A DNA stretch of 64,000 nt from a phage: assembly GCA_016389475.1 (NCBI GenBank), contig GCA_016389475.1_3042.1; one strand, given 5' to 3'. A model generated the notes under the pieces. That model made no database searches and was not told where the DNA came from. It saw nothing but the letters and a program-made list of their open reading frames with translations. Positions 11,494 to 17,536 of the stretch are shown here, in pieces (position 1 is the first letter of the stretch; each line of letters opens with the position of its first letter). The position numbers and the translations under genes were made by a program.

Positions 11494-11551
11494 GTTTTAC
11501 CTCCAGTAGTTGATAGGTCTATAATAACATAACCATAGACCTTGTAAACAA

Positions 11552-11839
11552 CTAAAAGAAACTTTTTTCGGTATTTTTTCCACTGAACCAAACAGACTTC
11601 GGGATTTTTTGTAATTTTTCAGATTTAAGTTTCTCTTCCTGTTCTTTCTTATATACACTCTTGTCGTACTGGAGCATCTCTAGGGCATTCTTTTGCAAAC
11701 GATCTAAGGTAATTAAGGCTTTAGTTTTTCCTTTCAAGGAAGAGTCCTGGCGAACTTCCTCGCTATATTGCATCGTAGAACTAACCATACGATGTGCATA
11801 CAGTTCGACTGCGGCTTTAATTTTTTGCATAAAATCCAT
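11552..11839 (-). CDS. hypothetical protein (95 aa), lysine-rich
   Basis: ORF in early orientation. Confidence 0.45.
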   Translation of the reverse strand: MDFMQKIKAAVELYAHRMVSSTMQYSEEVRQDSSLKGKTKALITLDRLQKNALEMLQYDKSVYKKEQEEKLKSEKLQKIPKSVWFSGKNTEKSFF

Positions 11840-11977
11840 AACATATCCTCTTTGATTTGTACATCATTATTTTTAAATATTTCTATGCCCTCAGTAGGTT
11901 CCTGGTGTCCTTCTTTGAGGTAAGCCATATGATTATTCATCTTTATGGCTTTTGTTACCTCAGAACTTCCTATAAGC

Positions 11978-12946
11978 TTATTTCAGTAAAGTAACTTCCG
12001 AGATTTCTTCCCAACCATCTTTATCAGTTGAAATAAAATCTGCTACATAAAGAGCCGTACGTAATGATACATTGCGAAGACGAGATACGTTAGCCTTCAT
12101 CCAGGACAATGCTTTATACGTTTCTGCATCCGTCAGACCACGTTTCTGCATCATGTCAGTAGATAATATTACATCTTCAACTCGAACCATAATCTCTTCA
12201 TTAGAGTGTACTCCAAGGTCGAGATACACTGAACGAGATACTAAAGCTTGAAGGTGTGGAGCAAGTTTCGAACCCCGTTCTAACTCTTTATCGATATCAA
12301 CGTTTGTAATGAAAACGATAGTACCTTCAAACTCAAATTCTTTATCAATACCCTTATCCTCGAGATAAGATGACGCAGTGCTCCAACAAACTTTGCGTTT
12401 ATCTCCGGTATCTAATGCTGCTTTAAGAAGGTTCAGGATGTCCATATCTGAGAATACGTCAACGTCATCGATTAAGAGAACGCTGTCTTCATCACGGTTG
12501 AGCCAAAGTTGTTCGTAAAGGCCAATACCAGAGATTTTACCATTAATGCTTTTGTATTTGATGAAACCGTTATCATTAGCATTATTAAGTGCTTTATCCA
12601 GAGAATACGTTTTACCAATACCTGCTGCTCCCGAGATAATTAATGAACGAATGTTTCCGTTAATAATACCATTCGTCATCATTCCCATAACATTAAATCT
12701 TTTATTAATGCGGGTTTTCATATCTTCATACGATTCTTTAACTTCTTCAACTTTTACACCATCATATGAAATGTCTGATTTGTAAACCCAAACACCGCGA
12801 CGCTTACCGTCAATTTCAACAAAAACTTTACCATCTCCTTGTGCATCTACCGGAGCATTATCTGGGAACCATTCACCTAAGAGCTCAAAAGTTCCAGAGA
12901 TTTCTTTACCGAAGTAGATACCCTTATTGATAGTTACAGTTTTCAT
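11978..12946 (-). CDS. P-loop NTPase (AAA-like ATPase), 322 aa from ATG 12946
   Basis: Walker A GAAGIGKT(Y)S and Walker B-like hhhhDDVD (VLLIDDVDVF). GGAG before the ATG at 12946. Confidence 0.65.
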   Translation of the reverse strand: MKTVTINKGIYFGKEISGTFELLGEWFPDNAPVDAQGDGKVFVEIDGKRRGVWVYKSDISYDGVKVEEVKESYEDMKTRINKRFNVMGMMTNGIINGNIRSLIISGAAGIGKTYSLDKALNNANDNGFIKYKSINGKISGIGLYEQLWLNRDEDSVLLIDDVDVFSDMDILNLLKAALDTGDKRKVCWSTASSYLEDKGIDKEFEFEGTIVFITNVDIDKELERGSKLAPHLQALVSRSVYLDLGVHSNEEIMVRVEDVILSTDMMQKRGLTDAETYKALSWMKANVSRLRNVSLRTALYVADFISTDKDGWEEISEVTLLK

Positions 12947-12974
12947 TTTATTCTCCAAATCCGTATCAGTTGAT

Positions 12975-13012
12975 AGTTGTATAGTACCATAAAGCTTTAT
13001 GCTTGTAAACCG
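12975..13012 (-). promoter_or_regulatory. early promoter (GTTTAC-N18-TACTAT) driving the ATPase gene
   Basis: Minus-strand GTTTAC at 13010..13005; -10 TACTAT at 12986..12981; shared leader motif CAACTATCAACTGA before the SD. Confidence 0.55.
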
Positions 13013-13027
13013 TTTTGTGAAAAATTT

Positions 13028-13058
13028 TTGAAATAAAAAAGGGAGCCCGAAGGCTCCC
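13028..13058 (-). terminator. rho-independent terminator
   Basis: GGGAGCC-cgaa-GGCTCCC hairpin followed on the minus strand by TTTTTTATTTC. Sits 3 nt past the stop of the 13061..14074 gene. Confidence 0.7.
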
Positions 13059-13060
13059 TA

Positions 13061-14074
13061 TCATTTATAATAACTTCGGTGGTTTTCAAGATAGACCTTC
13101 TCAAGGAAGTCATCCCAGAAACCCATGTCTACTTTTTGCTGCATACCGTTCTTAGAAGCTTCAGTAGATGCTGCTTCTACTTGATCGACCACATCTTCCA
13201 AAAACTCTTGAACTGTTTTAAATGGATGTTTACCCAACTTCACGTCGAGAATAAATGGAGCATCTTGGAGTGGATAAACCAAGTCACCAGTTTTGTAAAT
13301 TTCCAATAGTTGGAGTCCACCACGACAAGCATGACTCAGAGCTTTCCAGTCAATGCCTTCATTAGCTTCGGCTTTACGAGCACGTTCACCATATTCAGCA
13401 TCTAATTTATTCAGTGACTGCTTAAGCTCAATAAGAGAAAGTGTTGTCTGATATTTACGACCCAACACAGTGTAGAACGTTTGCGGGCCTGTTTTCTCGT
13501 GATTATGGAACACCCATTCACAGAATTCGTTTTCTGGAAGACGATGCTTAATATCTTCAACTTTAGTGCGACGCTGCTTAATAGAACCATCTTCTTGGTA
13601 ATCAACCCATTGCTCGGGGATTTGATTAACTACTTTCAATACATCACGTAATGCAGCCAAACGAGAACCCTTGACACCGTATTTAGAAGCTTGCTTGCGA
13701 ACATATCCTAAATAGGATTTCATGTTAGTCGTATAAAAACGAGAACGGTTGTCTTGAATAAACTTCCACACATCAGGCAAATCAGATTTAACCACTAGTT
13801 CAGGTGGAGTGTGAAGCATATCCAATGCTACAGTTTCACCATCTGCTGCTAATTTAAAGAAATATTTAAGACTGTATAGTTCATGGTCAATATCATCTTT
13901 AGTGTTTTTAGATGATGTGTTGTTAGTGTTTTTACTCATGTGCTCTTTGACATTTCCGATAAGAATATCACGAGCAGGAGGAACAAAAATTTCTTTAAAA
14001 TCTACATCAGATTCTGGGGTAGAAGTTCCATAAAGATGACTACCAAAATAGCTTTTCATTACTGTTTTCATCAT
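13061..14074 (-). CDS. Pol-beta-superfamily nucleotidyltransferase-like protein (337 aa)
   Basis: N-terminal G-S-x10-D-V-D (FGSHLYGTSTPESDVDF) with a downstream acidic residue in a hydrophobic strand (ETVALDMLH), followed by a roughly 230-aa helical region. ATGA overlap with the upstream membrane-protein gene. Confidence 0.55.
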   Translation of the reverse strand: MMKTVMKSYFGSHLYGTSTPESDVDFKEIFVPPARDILIGNVKEHMSKNTNNTSSKNTKDDIDHELYSLKYFFKLAADGETVALDMLHTPPELVVKSDLPDVWKFIQDNRSRFYTTNMKSYLGYVRKQASKYGVKGSRLAALRDVLKVVNQIPEQWVDYQEDGSIKQRRTKVEDIKHRLPENEFCEWVFHNHEKTGPQTFYTVLGRKYQTTLSLIELKQSLNKLDAEYGERARKAEANEGIDWKALSHACRGGLQLLEIYKTGDLVYPLQDAPFILDVKLGKHPFKTVQEFLEDVVDQVEAASTEASKNGMQQKVDMGFWDDFLEKVYLENHRSYYK

Positions 14075-14532
14075 TCAGCCTTATATTCAATAACAGGACA
14101 TACTTTAGCTTTACGAGCTTTTAAAAATTCAACGATAATCGATTTCTTGGGTTGAATAGGAGGTAAACCTTTATACGCCCTATCAATATTTTCTACGTGT
14201 AAAGCATAATCCTTTTTCCATTTATAATCTTTATATTTTTCACGCAAATGTGCAGGAATAACAAATGAACCGATAATAAGTAAAACAACCAAAAGCGCAA
14301 GTATAAATGCTGATGGAAGCAAAGTCCATAAACTACCAAAAATAAGCCAACGCTGTAGGCTTTCTGCACAAATAATTGTTAGCCCTACGAGTATAGCACA
14401 TCCAAAAATAGAAACGAAAAATGTAGGAATGGCAATAGACCAAAAATATGCGCATAGTGTCTTAGGTCGTTGCCATTCATCGTTAAACAATTTGAATAAT
14501 TTATAGTGCCAAGAGTTTTCATTAATAATCAT
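14071..14532 (-). CDS. multi-pass membrane protein (153 aa)
   Basis: Three hydrophobic segments (SIAIPTFFVSIFGCAILVGLTIIC; LIFGSLWTLLPSAFILALLVVLLIIGSFVI). Confidence 0.6.
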   Translation of the reverse strand: MIINENSWHYKLFKLFNDEWQRPKTLCAYFWSIAIPTFFVSIFGCAILVGLTIICAESLQRWLIFGSLWTLLPSAFILALLVVLLIIGSFVIPAHLREKYKDYKWKKDYALHVENIDRAYKGLPPIQPKKSIIVEFLKARKAKVCPVIEYKAE

Positions 14533-14534
14533 AA

Positions 14535-15056
14535 TTATCCTTTCATTGAAGGCGTAACGGTTGTTAAATACTTAATCATAGCTTCAGCTTCTGATTTTGA
14601 CAATGAAATTTCTTCATTGTTTTGACGAATAGAAATAAAATCCGGATGACGGTCACCACCAGCTTTTAAAACACACATATAAGTATCAACTTCATCTTCA
14701 ATATTTGAAATGATTGAAGCAGTTCCACATGAATGCGGTTTTTGATAAATCAATGCAGCTTTTCTTCCGCCATTTGACTGTTCATAAACTTTTAATACAT
14801 CAAACAAATCACTTCTTTTATCAATAGCTAAAATGTTATTTTCATCTTCAATGTTAAATCCTTCGGATACTTCATAAAGTGTCACCCATAAATCGCCAAT
14901 ATCAATAACAGCATTTACTTTTCCATGACTTTCAAGAGCATGACAAATTTTCTTGATTTCGTCATAACTCATTTTAATAATATCATCTCCTTGACTAAGA
15001 AAGATGTCATTTTTAAATTCAACACGAATTAAACCGCTTCCACTTGAAATAAACAT
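14535..15056 (-). CDS. hypothetical protein (173 aa), paralog of the next gene
   Basis: Shares GFNIE..., DxFDxxKxY and a C-terminal ...KYLTTVTPSM motif with the 15063..15620 product. Confidence 0.55.
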   Translation of the reverse strand: MFISSGSGLIRVEFKNDIFLSQGDDIIKMSYDEIKKICHALESHGKVNAVIDIGDLWVTLYEVSEGFNIEDENNILAIDKRSDLFDVLKVYEQSNGGRKAALIYQKPHSCGTASIISNIEDEVDTYMCVLKAGGDRHPDFISIRQNNEEISLSKSEAEAMIKYLTTVTPSMKG

Positions 15057-15062
15057 ATTTCC

Positions 15063-15620
15063 TCACTTTGAAATCATAGTTGGAATAACAGAATCAAGAT
15101 AAGTCTTTAGTGCAATAGTTTCGTCTTTGGTAAATGTGACAATATGTGCTCGAAAATCATCAATTTGACGAATAGTTAAGACATCTCCATCTTCATAACA
15201 TTTTGATACGTTTAAAACAGTTTCATCATTCTGATTGCAAGCGTTAGTAATAATAGCATTGCAATTTTTAAACCATTTTAAACTATGTTTTCTTTCATTA
15301 GAATAATAAAAATATTTAATCTTATCTATAAAACTATCCCAATGGATAACTGATAAGCATATTGACTCGCTTTCAATATTAAATCCTGGGCATGAAGAAT
15401 AAAAATGAATTTTATGCTCATCATTAATGCTTATAATTTTATCAGTATAAGGATTTTCAATTTTGGTTAAATGAATGATTTCACTAGGCGTAAAATACAG
15501 CATATCGTCTTCTTGTGTCAAACGATACATATTATTTACTTTTTCTATAGCCAATTCACCAAAAAGTGAACTAACTTCTAATACTAATCGTTTCATATTG
15601 ATTCTCTTCGACTCGCTCAC
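15063..15620 (-). CDS. hypothetical protein (185 aa), paralog of the previous gene; start codon uncertain (GTG 15620 or ATG 15596)
   Basis: C-terminal ...KTYLDSVIPTM and internal GFNIE motif parallel to 14535..15056. Confidence 0.5.
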   Translation of the reverse strand: MSESKRINMKRLVLEVSSLFGELAIEKVNNMYRLTQEDDMLYFTPSEIIHLTKIENPYTDKIISINDEHKIHFYSSCPGFNIESESICLSVIHWDSFIDKIKYFYYSNERKHSLKWFKNCNAIITNACNQNDETVLNVSKCYEDGDVLTIRQIDDFRAHIVTFTKDETIALKTYLDSVIPTMISK

Positions 15621-15749
15621 AATTACATACTCCTTTGAATAATATCAATAATGTTGTTCACCAGATTATAGGTAAACAAAGGATAATTATATTGAATCAT
15701 CACATACACAACAAACAAAATTTTCATTCTCTTCTCCTCAGTAGTTGAC

Positions 15750-15787
15750 AAGATTACTATACCATAACCTTGCCAACTTGTAAACCA
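15750..15787 (-). promoter_or_regulatory. early promoter (GTTTAC-N18-TATAGT) at the head of the cassette
   Basis: Minus-strand GTTTAC at 15785..15780, -10 at 15761..15756, then the shared leader TCAACTACTGAGGAG. Confidence 0.55.
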
Positions 15788-15957
15788 TTAAATGGCGTTT
15801 TCAATAAAATTCTGAAGCTTTGTGTGAGCATCAACCATGATTTTCATTTCTTCTTTGGCGAAAGCTGTACCTCTTTCCCGAGAAGAACATTCATAGTCAG
15901 AAACTGCATTAGCATATTCTTCGATTAGTTTCATTAAAAACATCTGTTTTTCAGTTT
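15787..15957 (-). CDS. hypothetical small protein (56 aa)
   Basis: Hand-translated ORF (MKTEKQMFLMKLIEEYANAVSDYECS...). ATGA overlap with the upstream gene stop. Confidence 0.3.
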
Positions 15958-16145
15958 TCATTATTCCACCTAATCATTTCAAGATATTGAACTAACTTAG
16001 CTTTAGATTTATCCAAATCCTTTTTAGCTGCTTCTATACCGTCGTATGAATATCCTTCACAATGCTCAACTGCTAATTGATATGAATCTATTTCAATATC
16101 ACGTGCTAATTTAATGATTTTTTCAAACTGTTCGCGTGTTAGCAT
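15951..16145 (-). CDS. hypothetical protein (64 aa)
   Basis: Track ORF in early orientation. Confidence 0.45.
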   Translation of the reverse strand: MLTREQFEKIIKLARDIEIDSYQLAVEHCEGYSYDGIEAAKKDLDKSKAKLVQYLEMIRWNNEN

Positions 16146-16147
16146 AC

Positions 16148-16351
16148 TTACACTCTCGTATTATGATCGATAATTTCATCAAGAAACATATCTAACGCTT
16201 CTATAGCATTATCCACTTTAGTTTCAAAGTCTTTAATGCCTTTATTCGAAATACCCGATGAATACCAAGCAAAGTCAATCAGCTCTTCATCTGCTTTACG
16301 AATTGAAGCCACTAATTCCTTGATTTTATCTGCTTGCTCTATACTAATCAT
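16148..16351 (-). CDS. hypothetical protein (about 67 aa from the internal ATG)
   Basis: The internal Met gives an ATGA junction with the upstream gene. Confidence 0.4.
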   Translation of the reverse strand: MISIEQADKIKELVASIRKADEELIDFAWYSSGISNKGIKDFETKVDNAIEALDMFLDEIIDHNTRV

Positions 16352-16539
16352 TATTCCACCACATATGACAGAGAGAATATTGCGCACGCCATGTGAGTTG
16401 CAACTTCATCACACATATTATAACGTTTCTTAAGAAGTTCTACAAGTTCTTCACTAGTAACTTCATCCATGTCGACGAAAAAATCACCATTAATGATGAC
16501 GTAGATATTTCCTTCTTGATTGAGTGCTTCAATTTTCAT
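16351..16539 (-). CDS. hypothetical protein (62 aa from ATG 16539)
   Basis: GAGGAG Shine-Dalgarno before the ATG at 16539; promoter just upstream. Confidence 0.45.
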
Positions 16540-16561
16540 GATATTCTCCTCTTTATCTGAT

Positions 16562-16599
16562 AGTTGTATAGTATCACAGCTCAAACGGAAAGTAAACCG
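16562..16599 (-). promoter_or_regulatory. early promoter (GTTTAC-N18-TACTAT)
   Basis: Minus-strand GTTTAC at 16597..16592; -10 at 16573..16568. Confidence 0.55.
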
Positions 16600-16634
16600 G
16601 TAAAATGAAAAAAGTCTCCCGAAGGAGACTAATG

Positions 16635-17021
16635 TTATTCGAGGGAAAGAAGATACTTACTCTGGTAAAACATTCCAGTAATATCATCTATCGTGCTTTG
16701 AATGGCTGGAGGCATTTCTTTATAAATGCTGTTAGATTGGTCTAGTATGCGATCAATCATTTTAATTGTGTCGGTAGGAAGTTTACTGGCATCTGGAATT
16801 GAAGGCGTGTATTTTCTACCAGAATACCCCAAATATTGCTCACCAAATTTATCAATCAAATCTGGCAACTCGGAGAAAATAAAATCGTATGCTTTGTGTC
16901 TAGCATAACTTTTAGTTTCAAAATGTGCAGAATGAAAATAAGCTTGTGCAGCCATTAATAAACCTAAGTATTCATCTGCCTTTGAAGGTTTTCCACTTTG
17001 TGAAAAGTCGCTGAATTTCAT
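16635..17021 (-). CDS. hypothetical protein at the rI.-1 position (128 aa)
   Basis: ORF immediately downstream of rI with ATGA overlap. Assigned by synteny. Confidence 0.55.
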
Positions 17022-17311
17022 TCAGTCTCCAATTTAATGTTCATAATTCTAGCGTATGATTGTGCCATCTCCGCGCCTCGTTCTATACATTCAAAATCAG
17101 AAGAGCACGGGTCATTTTTATAGGTCGTTCTCATAAAACTATAGAACTGTTCAGATGATTCTACGCTTTTATTTTCAAAAAGCATATAAACATGTCTAAT
17201 ACCAGATTCCATAAATTTATCAAAATGAGGATCGACATTCGCTTCAATCGGTGGAGATAAAGCAAACGCTAATCCTAGCATGGCAAATAGTGCCGTTGCT
17301 TTTAAGGCCAT
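17018..17311 (-). CDS. rI: lysis inhibition regulator RI (membrane-anchored periplasmic protein)
   Basis: 97 aa with N-terminal signal-anchor (MALKATALFAMLGLAFALSPPIEA). Length and position next to tk match T4 RI. Confidence 0.8.
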   Translation of the reverse strand: MALKATALFAMLGLAFALSPPIEANVDPHFDKFMESGIRHVYMLFENKSVESSEQFYSFMRTTYKNDPCSSDFECIERGAEMAQSYARIMNIKLETE

Positions 17312-17323
17312 AAAGGCCTCCTA

Positions 17324-17536
17324 TCATTTTTGTCCTGTATTTACTTTATGCCGATGCACGGCCTTAACTTTATCAAGGTATTTTTCAAAATTTCGCAATC
17401 TAGTATAGTCTGCCGGAGATTGGTTGAGTGATACTTCTCGACGCAAAGCTGAAATGATATTTCCAACTTTCCTACGAATTTCATCTAATTGAAGCACAGT
17501 AAGATTGCGAAGTTGCTTTTCAGTTAATTGTAGCAT
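17324..17536 (-). CDS. hypothetical protein (70 aa), basic
   Basis: ORF between tk and rI. Confidence 0.5.

Follow-up and report, generated by a model that had tools for sequence, protein, structure and literature searches.

Organization of the minus-strand block

The window analyzed here, a 64,000-nt stretch of phage DNA (GenBank assembly GCA_016389475.1), contains five co-directional ORFs, all on the minus strand, that are tightly packed between an early promoter and a strong terminator. Their positions agree with those given in a preliminary description made from the letters of the DNA. When the window was compared with many Tequatrovirus genomes, DNA identity was 97-98%, and the genes are annotated there as nrdC.11, mobD.1, and RB32ORF096c/097c. 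The block consists of ordinary, previously catalogued early genes of T2/T4-type phages. Within the variable nrdC-tk region, it forms the distal part of an early transcription unit of the usual T-even kind. None of its proteins was matched in NCBIfam or PADLOC, and an Rfam scan of positions 11500-17500 returned a single sub-threshold chance match.

The promoter ahead of the block (15756..15785, minus strand) is of the T-even early type, with a GTTTACA -35 element, a 17-nt spacer, and an extended -10 element (TGgTATAGT). It received the top score among the promoter-like sites in our scan (TTTACA-17-TATAGT; 10/12 plus the TG), confirming the early promoter proposed previously, and is one of 11 matches to the motif GTTTAC-N15-TGNTA in the window, which fall exclusively on the minus strand (chance expectation, 0.18). 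Further matches on the same strand lie upstream of the block (16572..16597) and directly past its terminator (12981..13010), the latter serving nrdC.10, which encodes an AAA-type ATPase. The intrinsic terminator (13030..13059, minus strand) ends the early transcript and was also as strong as previously described, with a hairpin at 13059..13040 of 8 pairs (6 G-C; dG -16.4 kcal/mol, z -3.0), a UUCG loop, and a U tract. A scan for terminators on the minus strand found no strong one from 16613 to 13059; transcripts from the promoter at 16572..16597 should therefore read into the block. Thus, the block has its own promoter and terminator, but read-through from upstream makes "self-contained," as it had been called, a loose term. 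In the arrangement that we propose, host RNA polymerase would initiate at the 15785-15756 promoter and also enter from the promoter at 16597, transcribing mobD.2, mobD.1, the mobD.1 paralog, the small membrane protein gene, and nrdC.11, in that order, and would stop at the hairpin at 13059-13040.

Only one of the four gene junctions is an ATGA overlap, in which the first ATG of nrdC.11 overlaps the stop codon of the membrane protein gene; at the remaining junctions the genes lie 2, 6, and 2 nt apart. The earlier statement that most junctions are ATGA overlaps was incorrect, and the argument for co-translation is unsupported since the overlaps on which it rested are mostly absent.

The promoter-proximal ORF, reported as a short leader ORF, is indeed present but is actually a conserved gene, mobD.2 (15623..15727, minus strand; 34 aa). 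Its product matched phrog_3515 (E = 1.3e-21), is 85% identical to T4 MobD.2, and was also found in Mosigvirus and Jiaodavirus loci. When called mechanically, the ORF reaches a TTG at 15751. Because transcription is expected to start at or after this codon, the ATG at 15727, which has a GAGGAG Shine-Dalgarno sequence upstream, is the most likely start codon.

The small membrane protein gene (14071..14532, minus strand; RB32ORF096c / ar1_100 type) encodes a 153-aa product that matched phrog_944 ("membrane protein"; E = 3.8e-50) and is without a counterpart in T4. The protein is hydrophobic and has two Kyte-Doolittle peaks, which by eye fall in uncharged stretches of ~30 and 34 residues; two to three membrane passes are plausible. 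The "three-helix membrane protein" was correctly recognized as a membrane protein, with its third helix at the upper end of this range. Motifs conserved in the family are NxNSWH(Y/F), CxYFW, and a C-terminal KxKxC; no Pfam sensor domain was found in the protein.

NrdC.11 is a member of the RlaP family by sequence

The gene nrdC.11 (13061..14074, minus strand) encodes 337 aa when read from its first ATG (336 aa are annotated in T2/T4). Identity of the window's NrdC.11 to its T4 and T2 counterparts is 98-100%, with values of 98.8% and 98.2% obtained in two comparisons with T4 NrdC.11. It matched phrog_388 (E = 8e-137) and, over residues 7-135, the RlaP profile of Pfam (PF10127) with 44.2 bits against a cut-off of 23 (E = 2.5e-11). 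PF10127 was also matched by 10 of 10 diverse NrdC.11 homologs down to 29% identity, the best at E = 1e-14. [quoted passage not shown] T4 NrdC.11 is named as an RlaP, and assigned to RlaP cluster 5, in a published analysis (PMC12776372). Direct homolog searches yielded relatives of 68-100% identity, and the diversity of the family was taken from phage records and from a representative library, in which 6523 representatives were related to NrdC.11 at E<=1e-3. A phmmer search of PDB sequences gave nothing at E<=1.

The Pol-beta nucleotidyltransferase (NTase) signature G-S-x10-D-V-D, noted in the preliminary description, is present as G11-S12-x10-D23-V-D25, and G11, S12, D23, and D25 are invariant in a sample of 51 homologs (33-55% identity). 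In the same homologs, conservation is 90% or higher at each of D61, D63, and D85, making D61/D63 or D85 candidates for the third catalytic carboxylate. A later acidic residue within a hydrophobic strand had been proposed as well; conserved acidic residues do exist, but in our model D85 lies in a helix and D61/D63 at the start of a strand.

Neither an RNA ligase gene nor a Pnkp gene adjoins nrdC.11 in the window or in T-even loci. Since the association with RNA repair holds for only part of the RlaP family (PMC12776372), the absence of a ligase neighbor leaves the family assignment intact.

Predicted fold of NrdC.11

The structure of NrdC.11 was predicted with AF2 from a 15-row alignment (pLDDT 85.6) and is alpha/beta toward the N terminus and helical toward the C terminus. 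Fold matches to the model were exclusively Pol-beta NTases and HEPN-like helical domains, which, along with the PF10127 match and the motif, bears out the earlier view that the 337-aa protein is a Pol-beta-type nucleotidyltransferase. Three folds had been raised for it (CD-NTase/OAS, MNT, or poly(A)-polymerase); the model is that of a minimal NTase with a HEPN-like part, similar to kanamycin nucleotidyltransferase, and is not CD-NTase/OAS-like. cGAS, OAS, and CD-NTases were absent from the fold matches, and membership in the CD-NTase/cGAS-OAS family was rejected as neither sequence nor fold showed any likeness. An assignment to the MNT-HEPN toxin-antitoxin type was rejected as well (NTP_transf_2, E = 0.09, below cut-off), as was one to the aminoglycoside NTases, to which matches were weak and from which the sequence is separated by falling in PF10127. 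On inspection, the conserved C-terminal blocks of NrdC.11 contained no conserved R-x4-6-H HEPN RNase motif; R231, K244, H248, and R251 are invariant there. No RlaP structure was among the matches from the PDB fold and sequence searches.

MobD.1 and its paralog

The gene mobD.1 (15063..15620, minus strand; y05I-like) encodes 185 aa from a GTG, and its paralog (14535..15056, minus strand; RB32ORF097c / ar1_101 type), which is without a counterpart in T4, encodes 173 aa. Both products contain the two Pfam domains of the y05I-like family, T4_y05I_N and T4_y05I_C (PF24449 and PF24448), above threshold, with 130 and 70 bits for MobD.1 and 118 and 81 bits for the paralog (E = 2.4e-34 and 8.7e-23). 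The two proteins are 29% identical (E = 2e-10), confirming the tandem paralog pair recognized previously. A match of the paralog to DUF7189 was also listed, below cut-off.

A medium-confidence model (pLDDT 79, falling to 62-71 in the C-terminal third) contains the repeated beta-beta-beta-beta-alpha units of the PUR/Whirly fold. From this model, MobD.1 and its paralog are predicted to be three-repeat, PUR/Whirly-like binders of single-stranded nucleic acid. Neither protein matched a PUR/Whirly family in Pfam, where T4_y05I_N and T4_y05I_C were the sole domains above threshold.

If the fold is as predicted, the two proteins could cooperate with NrdC.11 by presenting damaged RNA ends to the NTase. 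Known PUR-like members bind single-stranded DNA or RNA, one transcript is common to all of these genes, and the RB43 gene that lies upstream of nrdC.11 codes for a ProQ-C-like domain, which is likewise an RNA-binding module. We nevertheless consider such cooperation quite improbable. The y05I-like family is tiny (53 clusters) and does not reach past Tequatrovirus, Mosigvirus, and their near relatives, whereas the range of NrdC.11 covers Straboviridae and extends further; the fold assignment comes from a model of only medium confidence; and in IMG/VR loci the y05I C-domain gene tracks the membrane protein gene, not nrdC.11. Small ORFs that precede distant homologs of the membrane protein were searched for remote y05I C-domains (hmmsearch --max, speed filters off), and none was found outside T-even-like loci.

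Exchange of a two-gene cassette in T4 and linkage of the genes

When the window was aligned with T4 using blastn, homology stopped at 14075 and restarted at 15038. The intervening segment (14076..15037) comprises the membrane protein gene and almost all of the mobD.1 paralog, and in its place T4 has ~808 bp with the mobD HNH homing endonuclease. Both the T4 annotation and the alignment confirm the earlier statement that T4 carries mobD at this site. The mobD.1 paralog and the membrane protein gene are thus a two-gene cassette that is swapped in T4 for mobD, a gene found at >=95% identity in only about 47 phage records. T4 keeps NrdC.11 (~98-99% identity) without the membrane protein gene and one paralog.

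NrdC.11 is nearly ubiquitous in T4-like phages and was found in 1518 phage records. The four larger genes of the block are not co-conserved, as the membrane protein gene occurs in 852 records, the mobD.1 paralog in 468 (nearly all Tequatrovirus), and the remaining gene in 727. These distributions bear on the proposal that the two components of one module are the NTase, as maker of a nucleotide or oligonucleotide signal, and the membrane protein, as the effector under its control, in the manner of CBASS or Hailong (HalB NTase, HalA channel), with a role in superinfection exclusion, abortive infection, or counter-defense. The ATGA overlap of the membrane-gene stop codon and the nrdC.11 start codon, seen here and in Mosigvirus, is consistent with such a module, as is the presence of a membrane homolog ~1 kb or less upstream of nrdC.11 in Tequatrovirus, Mosigvirus, Jiaodavirus, a Providencia phage, and an Acinetobacter phage. 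Because this proximity extends across several genera, the two proteins could still be functionally linked in those phages. However, each gene is found alone. T4 retains NrdC.11 though the membrane protein gene is deleted, and a comparison of loci showed that RB43, Aeromonas, Vibrio, and Miami phages possess NrdC.11 with no membrane homolog nearby. Conversely, 18 of 29 IMG/VR loci with a member of the membrane-protein family lacked any NTase within 6 kb, and one T4-like locus (L030) has the membrane protein gene but lacks NrdC.11. Variable small genes separate the membrane protein gene from the NTase in 6 of 11 loci, and only one junction of the block is an ATGA overlap. Moreover, NrdC.11 was no more similar to HalB than to other minimal NTases, and, as described above, there was no PADLOC match, no cGAS/OAS/CD-NTase fold match, and a sequence family, RlaP, of a different kind. 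The module is largely refuted by gene distribution, an outcome that the preliminary description had itself named as refuting it, and we regard it as very unlikely. We attach an even smaller likelihood to a combined form in which, where all are present, the y05I-like/membrane pair and NrdC.11 would cooperate as a Hailong-like phage NTase-membrane system, with the membrane protein coupled to what the NTase makes or to modification of an RNA end and the PUR-like proteins handling a nucleic-acid ligand, in superinfection exclusion or counter-defense. Taken together, the genes of the block are independent passengers and not one machine.

Proposed function of NrdC.11

Bacterial RlaP adds one or two NMPs to the 3'-OH of RNA with a preference for Mn2+ and labels neither DNA nor protein, an activity shown for the P. 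fluorescens and P. aeruginosa enzymes only (PMC12776372, a December 2025 preprint). RlaP has been predicted to restore nucleotides lost to RloC-type nucleases ahead of ligation (PMC7824862). [quoted passage not shown] Its most likely role would be to restore nucleotides trimmed from host tRNAs that have been cleaved by RloC-type anticodon nucleases, after which the phage Pnkp/RNA-ligase repair pathway would rebuild a working tRNA. Our leading hypothesis, by analogy with these enzymes, is that the substrate of NrdC.11 is RNA and that the enzyme contributes to tRNA repair during infection. Weighing against it are the different similarity clusters of NrdC.11 and the characterized enzymes, the restriction of the Pfam match to residues 7-135, the variable insert described below, and the lack of an RNA ligase or Pnkp neighbor in the window. 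In T4, the nrdC.11-mobD.3 segment can be dispensed with, as seen in viable genome-reduced mutants (PMC9825161).

An NTase of this build might instead act on a target other than an RNA end, either AMPylating a host or phage protein, as do DrrA and MNT antitoxins, or nucleotidylating a small molecule, as do kanamycin/lincosamide NTases. We judge this unlikely. The structural matches that suggest it are weak and reflect a common minimal NTase plus helical-domain scaffold, the sequence belongs to PF10127 and not to the aminoglycoside-NTase/MNT group, and the characterized RlaPs, as noted, leave protein and DNA unlabelled. In addition, the NrdC.11 homolog of Vibrio phage 11895-B1 comes after an AAA_33 kinase (polynucleotide-kinase-like P-loop) and a CCA-adding enzyme, a context that supports the RNA-end reading.

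The explanation that we favor as a whole is a set of independent early genes that includes an RlaP NTase probably engaged in tRNA repair, a PUR-like MobD.1 pair, and a cassette swapped in T4, and we assign it a probability of about 0.62. As the outcome of a genome scan it is negative, for the block is already known: hundreds of sequenced phages carry it, it is catalogued in T-even genomes, and its enzyme has been assigned to a named family, with a functional hypothesis in print. Three points are of modest interest: the role of NrdC.11, the PUR/Whirly-like MobD.1 pair, and the mobD-displaced cassette in T4. If NrdC.11 restores nucleotides, this would account for the way in which T-even phages could cope with anticodon nucleases such as RloC, whose trimming of the cleaved tRNA defeats simple religation. 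The MobD.1 pair, if the model is right, seems to represent in phages the PUR/Whirly fold for binding single-stranded nucleic acid, and the mobD swap shows which genes travel together in the variable region.

Comparison with known systems

Hailong and CBASS are host defense systems whose two genes strictly co-occur, whereas here each gene occurs alone; neither the obligate co-occurrence with an effector that marks CBASS nor the strict HalB-HalA pairing of Hailong was seen. T4 lacks the membrane protein gene, no PADLOC model was matched, and the NTase is of a different sequence family. Relative to Pur-alpha, the Whirly proteins (PBF-2, StWhy2), and MRP1-MRP2, the y05I-like proteins show 5% sequence identity without a PUR match in Pfam, occur only in a narrow set of enterobacterial T-even phages, and are predicted from the model to bind nucleic acid. 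The free-standing HNH homing endonuclease locus mobD of T4 occupies the same slot, between nrdC.11 and mobD.1; the window is without mobD and has the two genes that mobD displaces in T4.

The best structural matches to NrdC.11 were of the kanamycin nucleotidyltransferase / MNT-HEPN type, in which a minimal Pol-beta NTase core is followed by a HEPN-like helical bundle. The characterized RlaPs are Pseudomonas proteins from RtcB operons and belong to cluster 1a, unlike NrdC.11 in cluster 5, which is also longer than the 249-position Pfam RlaP profile and has a variable beta-rich insert at ~150-210. The crystal structure of PfRlaP combines an N-terminal NTase domain with a helical C-terminal domain, the last helix of which folds back against the NTase domain (PMC12776372); the NrdC.11 model, with its alpha/beta and helical parts, may have a similar two-domain layout.

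Organization and transcription signals of the block

The 3.1-kb region matched 723 records, 429 of them over at least 80% of its length, and was 96-98% identical to hundreds of Tequatrovirus genomes; ORF calling in the window gave five genes between 13028 and 15790, all on the minus strand and in the same direction. In AR1/RB32-type annotation these are the short ORF mobD.2 (15623..15727), the 185-aa mobD.1 (15063..15620), a 173-aa gene (ar1_101/RB32ORF097c; 14535..15056), a 153-aa gene (ar1_100/RB32ORF096c; 14071..14532) and the 337-aa nrdC.11 (13061..14074). The block is flanked by the ATPase gene, nrdC.10, and upstream by rI.-1, rI, rI.1 and tk; together with the gene identities, these flanks place the window in a T2/RB32-like T-even phage. 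NrdC.10 (326 aa; 11978-12958, minus strand) had AAA_22, AAA_16 and nSTAND3 P-loop matches, all sub-threshold; loci from Tequatrovirus, Mosigvirus, Jiaodavirus and Acinetobacter phages keep its gene on the downstream side of nrdC.11, under a promoter of its own. Many GenBank/RefSeq records label NrdC.11 "thioredoxin" and MobD.1, MobD.4 or MobD.5 [quoted passage not shown]; these labels appear to be propagated name artefacts, arising from nearness to nrdC and from confusion over the mobD symbol, respectively.

The genes are tightly packed, as the preliminary description had it, but the ATGA overlaps that it gave for most junctions occur at only one of the four, where the TGA of the 153-aa gene is shared with the first ATG of nrdC.11. 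At the others, the GTG of mobD.1 follows the mobD.2 stop after 2 nt, the TGA of mobD.1 lies 6 nt before the ATG of the 173-aa gene, and the TAA of the latter lies 2 nt before the ATG of the 153-aa gene. A promoter-like site was found where an early promoter had been claimed, at 15784..15756 on the minus strand (TTTACA-17-TATAGT, extended TG; score 10/12). It ties with two others for the highest regional score and is the sole one of the three with an extended -10 TG. The site belongs to the motif GTTTAC-N15-TGNTA, of which the window has 11 copies, every one on the minus strand and within 325-31651, against a chance expectation of 0.18. T-even early promoters would be expected to show such an excess and strand bias, and this series marks them along that part of the window. 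A 57-aa ORF directly upstream of the promoter (15788-15961, minus strand) matched DUF7438 and phrog_2758 and is the counterpart of AR1 ar1_103; the T4 annotation has a shorter ORF here, the 38-aa mobD.2a.

The strong terminator proposed for the end of the block was recovered as a minus-strand hairpin at 13059..13040, with an 8-bp stem (6 G-C), a UUCG loop and a U tract (dG -16.4 kcal/mol; z -3.0 vs shuffles). Directly after it, ahead of nrdC.10, lies another minus-strand copy of the promoter motif (13010..12985), and a further one (16597..16572) directly follows an upstream terminator, giving terminator-then-promoter pairs at 13059/13010 and 16630/16597. A terminator scan found no strong minus-strand terminator between 16613 and 13059, so that read-through into the block is expected; it has its own promoter but is not the strictly self-contained unit first described.

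NrdC.11 is an RlaP-family nucleotidyltransferase

[quoted passage not shown] By tblastn, NrdC.11 was present in 1518 phage records, with identities down to ~29%, from Escherichia, Klebsiella, Acinetobacter, Aeromonas and Vibrio phages; all 10 homologs taken across 31-80% identity matched PF10127. Searching 1.84 billion representative proteins with a profile returned 6523 relatives at E<=1e-3 (1513 at E<=1e-30), and nearly all of the best 150 of these 6523 were full length, at about 305-390 aa. In an alignment of 51 sequences of 33-55% identity, G11, S12, G16, S22, D23, D25, Y132, G229, R231, K244, H248, R251 and P268 were invariant, and D61, D63 and D85 were each at least 90% conserved. The G-S-x10-D-V-D signature (G11, S12, D23, D25) read from the window is therefore real and conserved.

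The AlphaFold2 model (pLDDT 85.6, pTM 0.73) runs from an alpha/beta N-terminal part through a beta-rich segment (~155-209) to a helical C-terminal part. The middle segment, with five predicted strands at residues about 150-210, sits between the nucleotidyltransferase and helical domains, beyond the PF10127-aligned residues 7-135. It falls in the most variable and indel-rich part of the alignment and may represent a substrate-binding insert. Foldseek gave only weak matches in the PDB, the best being kanamycin nucleotidyltransferase (E 3e-3), Hailong HalB and an uncharacterised NTase-like protein, and after these other aminoglycoside and lincosamide nucleotidyltransferases; terminal uridylyl and poly(A)-type enzymes appeared at low probability only. 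Family membership, motif conservation and the predicted fold of NrdC.11 are shown by these analyses. PADLOC defence models and NCBIfam models gave no match. A Hailong- or CBASS-like pairing of NrdC.11 with the membrane protein has a low probability.

MobD.1, its paralog and the membrane protein

The tandem paralogs were confirmed: the 185-aa and 173-aa proteins share 29% identity (E 2e-10), and each matched Pfam T4_y05I_N (PF24449) and T4_y05I_C (PF24448), "y05I-like putative transcription factor". It is a very small family, with 53 clusters among the 5.8 billion proteins searched, and all hits with a named source organism were Escherichia, Shigella or Yersinia phage or host records. The AlphaFold2 model of MobD.1 (pLDDT 79 overall, reaching 85-91 over the N-terminal domain but 62-71 for part of the C-terminal one) has two successive units of four strands and a helix, and then a third of five strands and a helix. 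Its structural counterparts all belong to the PUR/Whirly fold class and bind single-stranded DNA or RNA, a likeness that explains the Pfam label. Single-stranded nucleic-acid binding is accordingly a concrete activity predicted from the model for MobD.1 and its paralog.

The 153-aa protein matched PHROG 944 "membrane protein". Its Kyte-Doolittle hydropathy peaks (residues 26-44 and 74-92) fall by eye in uncharged stretches at ~27-56 and ~62-95, a pattern compatible with two or three membrane passes. Homologs have in common an N-terminal NxNSWH(Y/F) motif, P-x-x-x-C-x-Y-F-W where the first of the hydrophobic stretches begins, and the basic motif K-x-K-x-C at the C terminus.

Which genes travel together

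The block had been read as a module pairing the nucleotidyltransferase with the membrane protein. Phage records numbered 1518 for NrdC.11, 852 for the membrane protein, 727 for MobD.1 and 468 for the paralog. When genes within 4 kb of nrdC.11 were compared, all block genes were found in AR1; T4 had nrdC.11 without the membrane gene or the paralog; a Mosigvirus had one y05I-like gene and the membrane gene; and in a Jiaodavirus, a Providencia phage and Acinetobacter phage Ac42 the membrane gene was separated by a further one or two genes on the upstream side. NrdC.11 alone was present in RB43, an Aeromonas phage, Klebsiella phage Miami and two Vibrio phages, where it is abutted by an unrelated gene. 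In 29 IMG/VR loci with membrane-protein homologs, an NrdC.11 homolog lay within 6 kb in only 11, six of them with other small genes in between; neighbours in the remaining 18 were varied and unrelated. NrdC.11 is thus a ubiquitous T4-type ortholog and the four genes are not co-conserved, outcomes that the preliminary description had itself named as refuting its reading.

The gene abutting nrdC.11 in RB43 (L004, 3627-4007) encodes a "Phage ProQ C-terminal-like" domain (PF24203, E 2.8e-17), an RNA-chaperone-type module. Nucleic-acid binders recur beside nrdC.11, ProQ-C-like in RB43 and predicted PUR-like small proteins in T-even phages; a working partnership between the PUR-like protein and the nucleotidyltransferase is improbable.

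A gene with the y05I C-terminal domain (PF24448) directly precedes the membrane gene in the window, in AR1, in the Mosigvirus and Jiaodavirus loci and in 11 IMG/VR loci, abutting its 5' end in L007, L008, L012-L018, L020, L021, L023 and L030. Sometimes PF24448 is a stand-alone protein of 74-76 aa. The T4-like contig L030 reads tk, rI.1, rI, y05I-C-domain gene, membrane gene, 255-aa ORF, nrdC.10, with no nrdC.11. The Providencia and Acinetobacter phages are exceptions, with nothing y05I-like detected close to the membrane gene by tblastn or hmmsearch. Overall, this pairing looks more conserved than that of membrane gene and nucleotidyltransferase.

The T4 annotation, with the order nrdC.11, mobD, mobD.1, mobD.2, agrees with the preliminary description in placing mobD at this site. 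By blastn, homology to T4 breaks off at 14075 and restarts at 15038; in place of window positions 14076-15037 (almost the whole 173-aa paralog together with the membrane gene), T4 has ~808 bp with the mobD homing-endonuclease gene (L002, 4450-5259), whose product gave a weak Pfam HNH match. T4 mobD stands in place of exactly the y05I-like and membrane-protein pair. Only ~47 phage records had mobD at >=95% identity, whereas the genes that it displaces were present in 468-852, so that T4 has the minority arrangement. This exchange and the adjacency of the two genes indicate that the unit gained or lost is the y05I-like gene with the membrane gene, and not the membrane gene with the nucleotidyltransferase.

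Proposed role of NrdC.11

A December 2025 preprint (PMC12776372) reported that RNA 3'-OH ends gain one or two NMPs through the action of two Pseudomonas RlaPs, which favour cleaved-tRNA mimics and Mn2+, are inactive on DNA and protein, and partly restore aminoacylation of a tRNA lacking one anticodon-loop nucleotide. The same study proposed RlaP as an antidote to "smart" ribotoxins such as RloC and explicitly assigned T4 NrdC.11 to RlaP cluster 5 of a similarity network; a 2021 comparative study made the same prediction for phage RlaPs (PMC7824862). The T4 segment nrdC.11-mobD.3 is missing from viable genome-reduced mutants (PMC9825161), so laboratory growth does not depend on these genes, as one would expect if their functions are accessory or directed at counter-defence. 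Our literature search found no published experiment on NrdC.11 itself. In Vibrio phage 11895-B1 (L010, 805-4921), three genes stand directly ahead of the NrdC.11 homolog: one for an AAA_33 P-loop kinase, one for a CCA-adding enzyme (PolyA_pol head domain) that is split by an HNH endonuclease gene, and one annotated as encoding a "hydrolase" of 154 aa, for which Pfam gave no match. This neighbourhood fits RNA-end repair.

The block is most likely ordinary early-gene cargo in which NrdC.11, by homology with its bacterial relatives, the only ones for which the chemistry was demonstrated, would add nucleotides to RNA 3' ends. It would cooperate in trans with the phage polynucleotide kinase-phosphatase and RNA ligase, whose genes lie in other parts of T-even genomes, as is well established for T4, in repairing tRNAs both cut and trimmed by host anticodon nucleases; it is this in vivo role in tRNA repair that we infer. 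A non-RNA substrate, which the aminoglycoside and lincosamide enzymes among the fold matches might suggest, has a low probability beside the inactivity of the Pseudomonas RlaPs on DNA and protein. Interest remains in what NrdC.11 does during T-even infection, in MobD.1 and its paralog as predicted PUR/Whirly-like proteins, and in the replacement of the two-gene cassette by mobD. The preliminary description was largely accurate in observation and only partly so in interpretation: the element is already known, with genes annotated in hundreds of genomes, a named family and biochemically characterised bacterial members.
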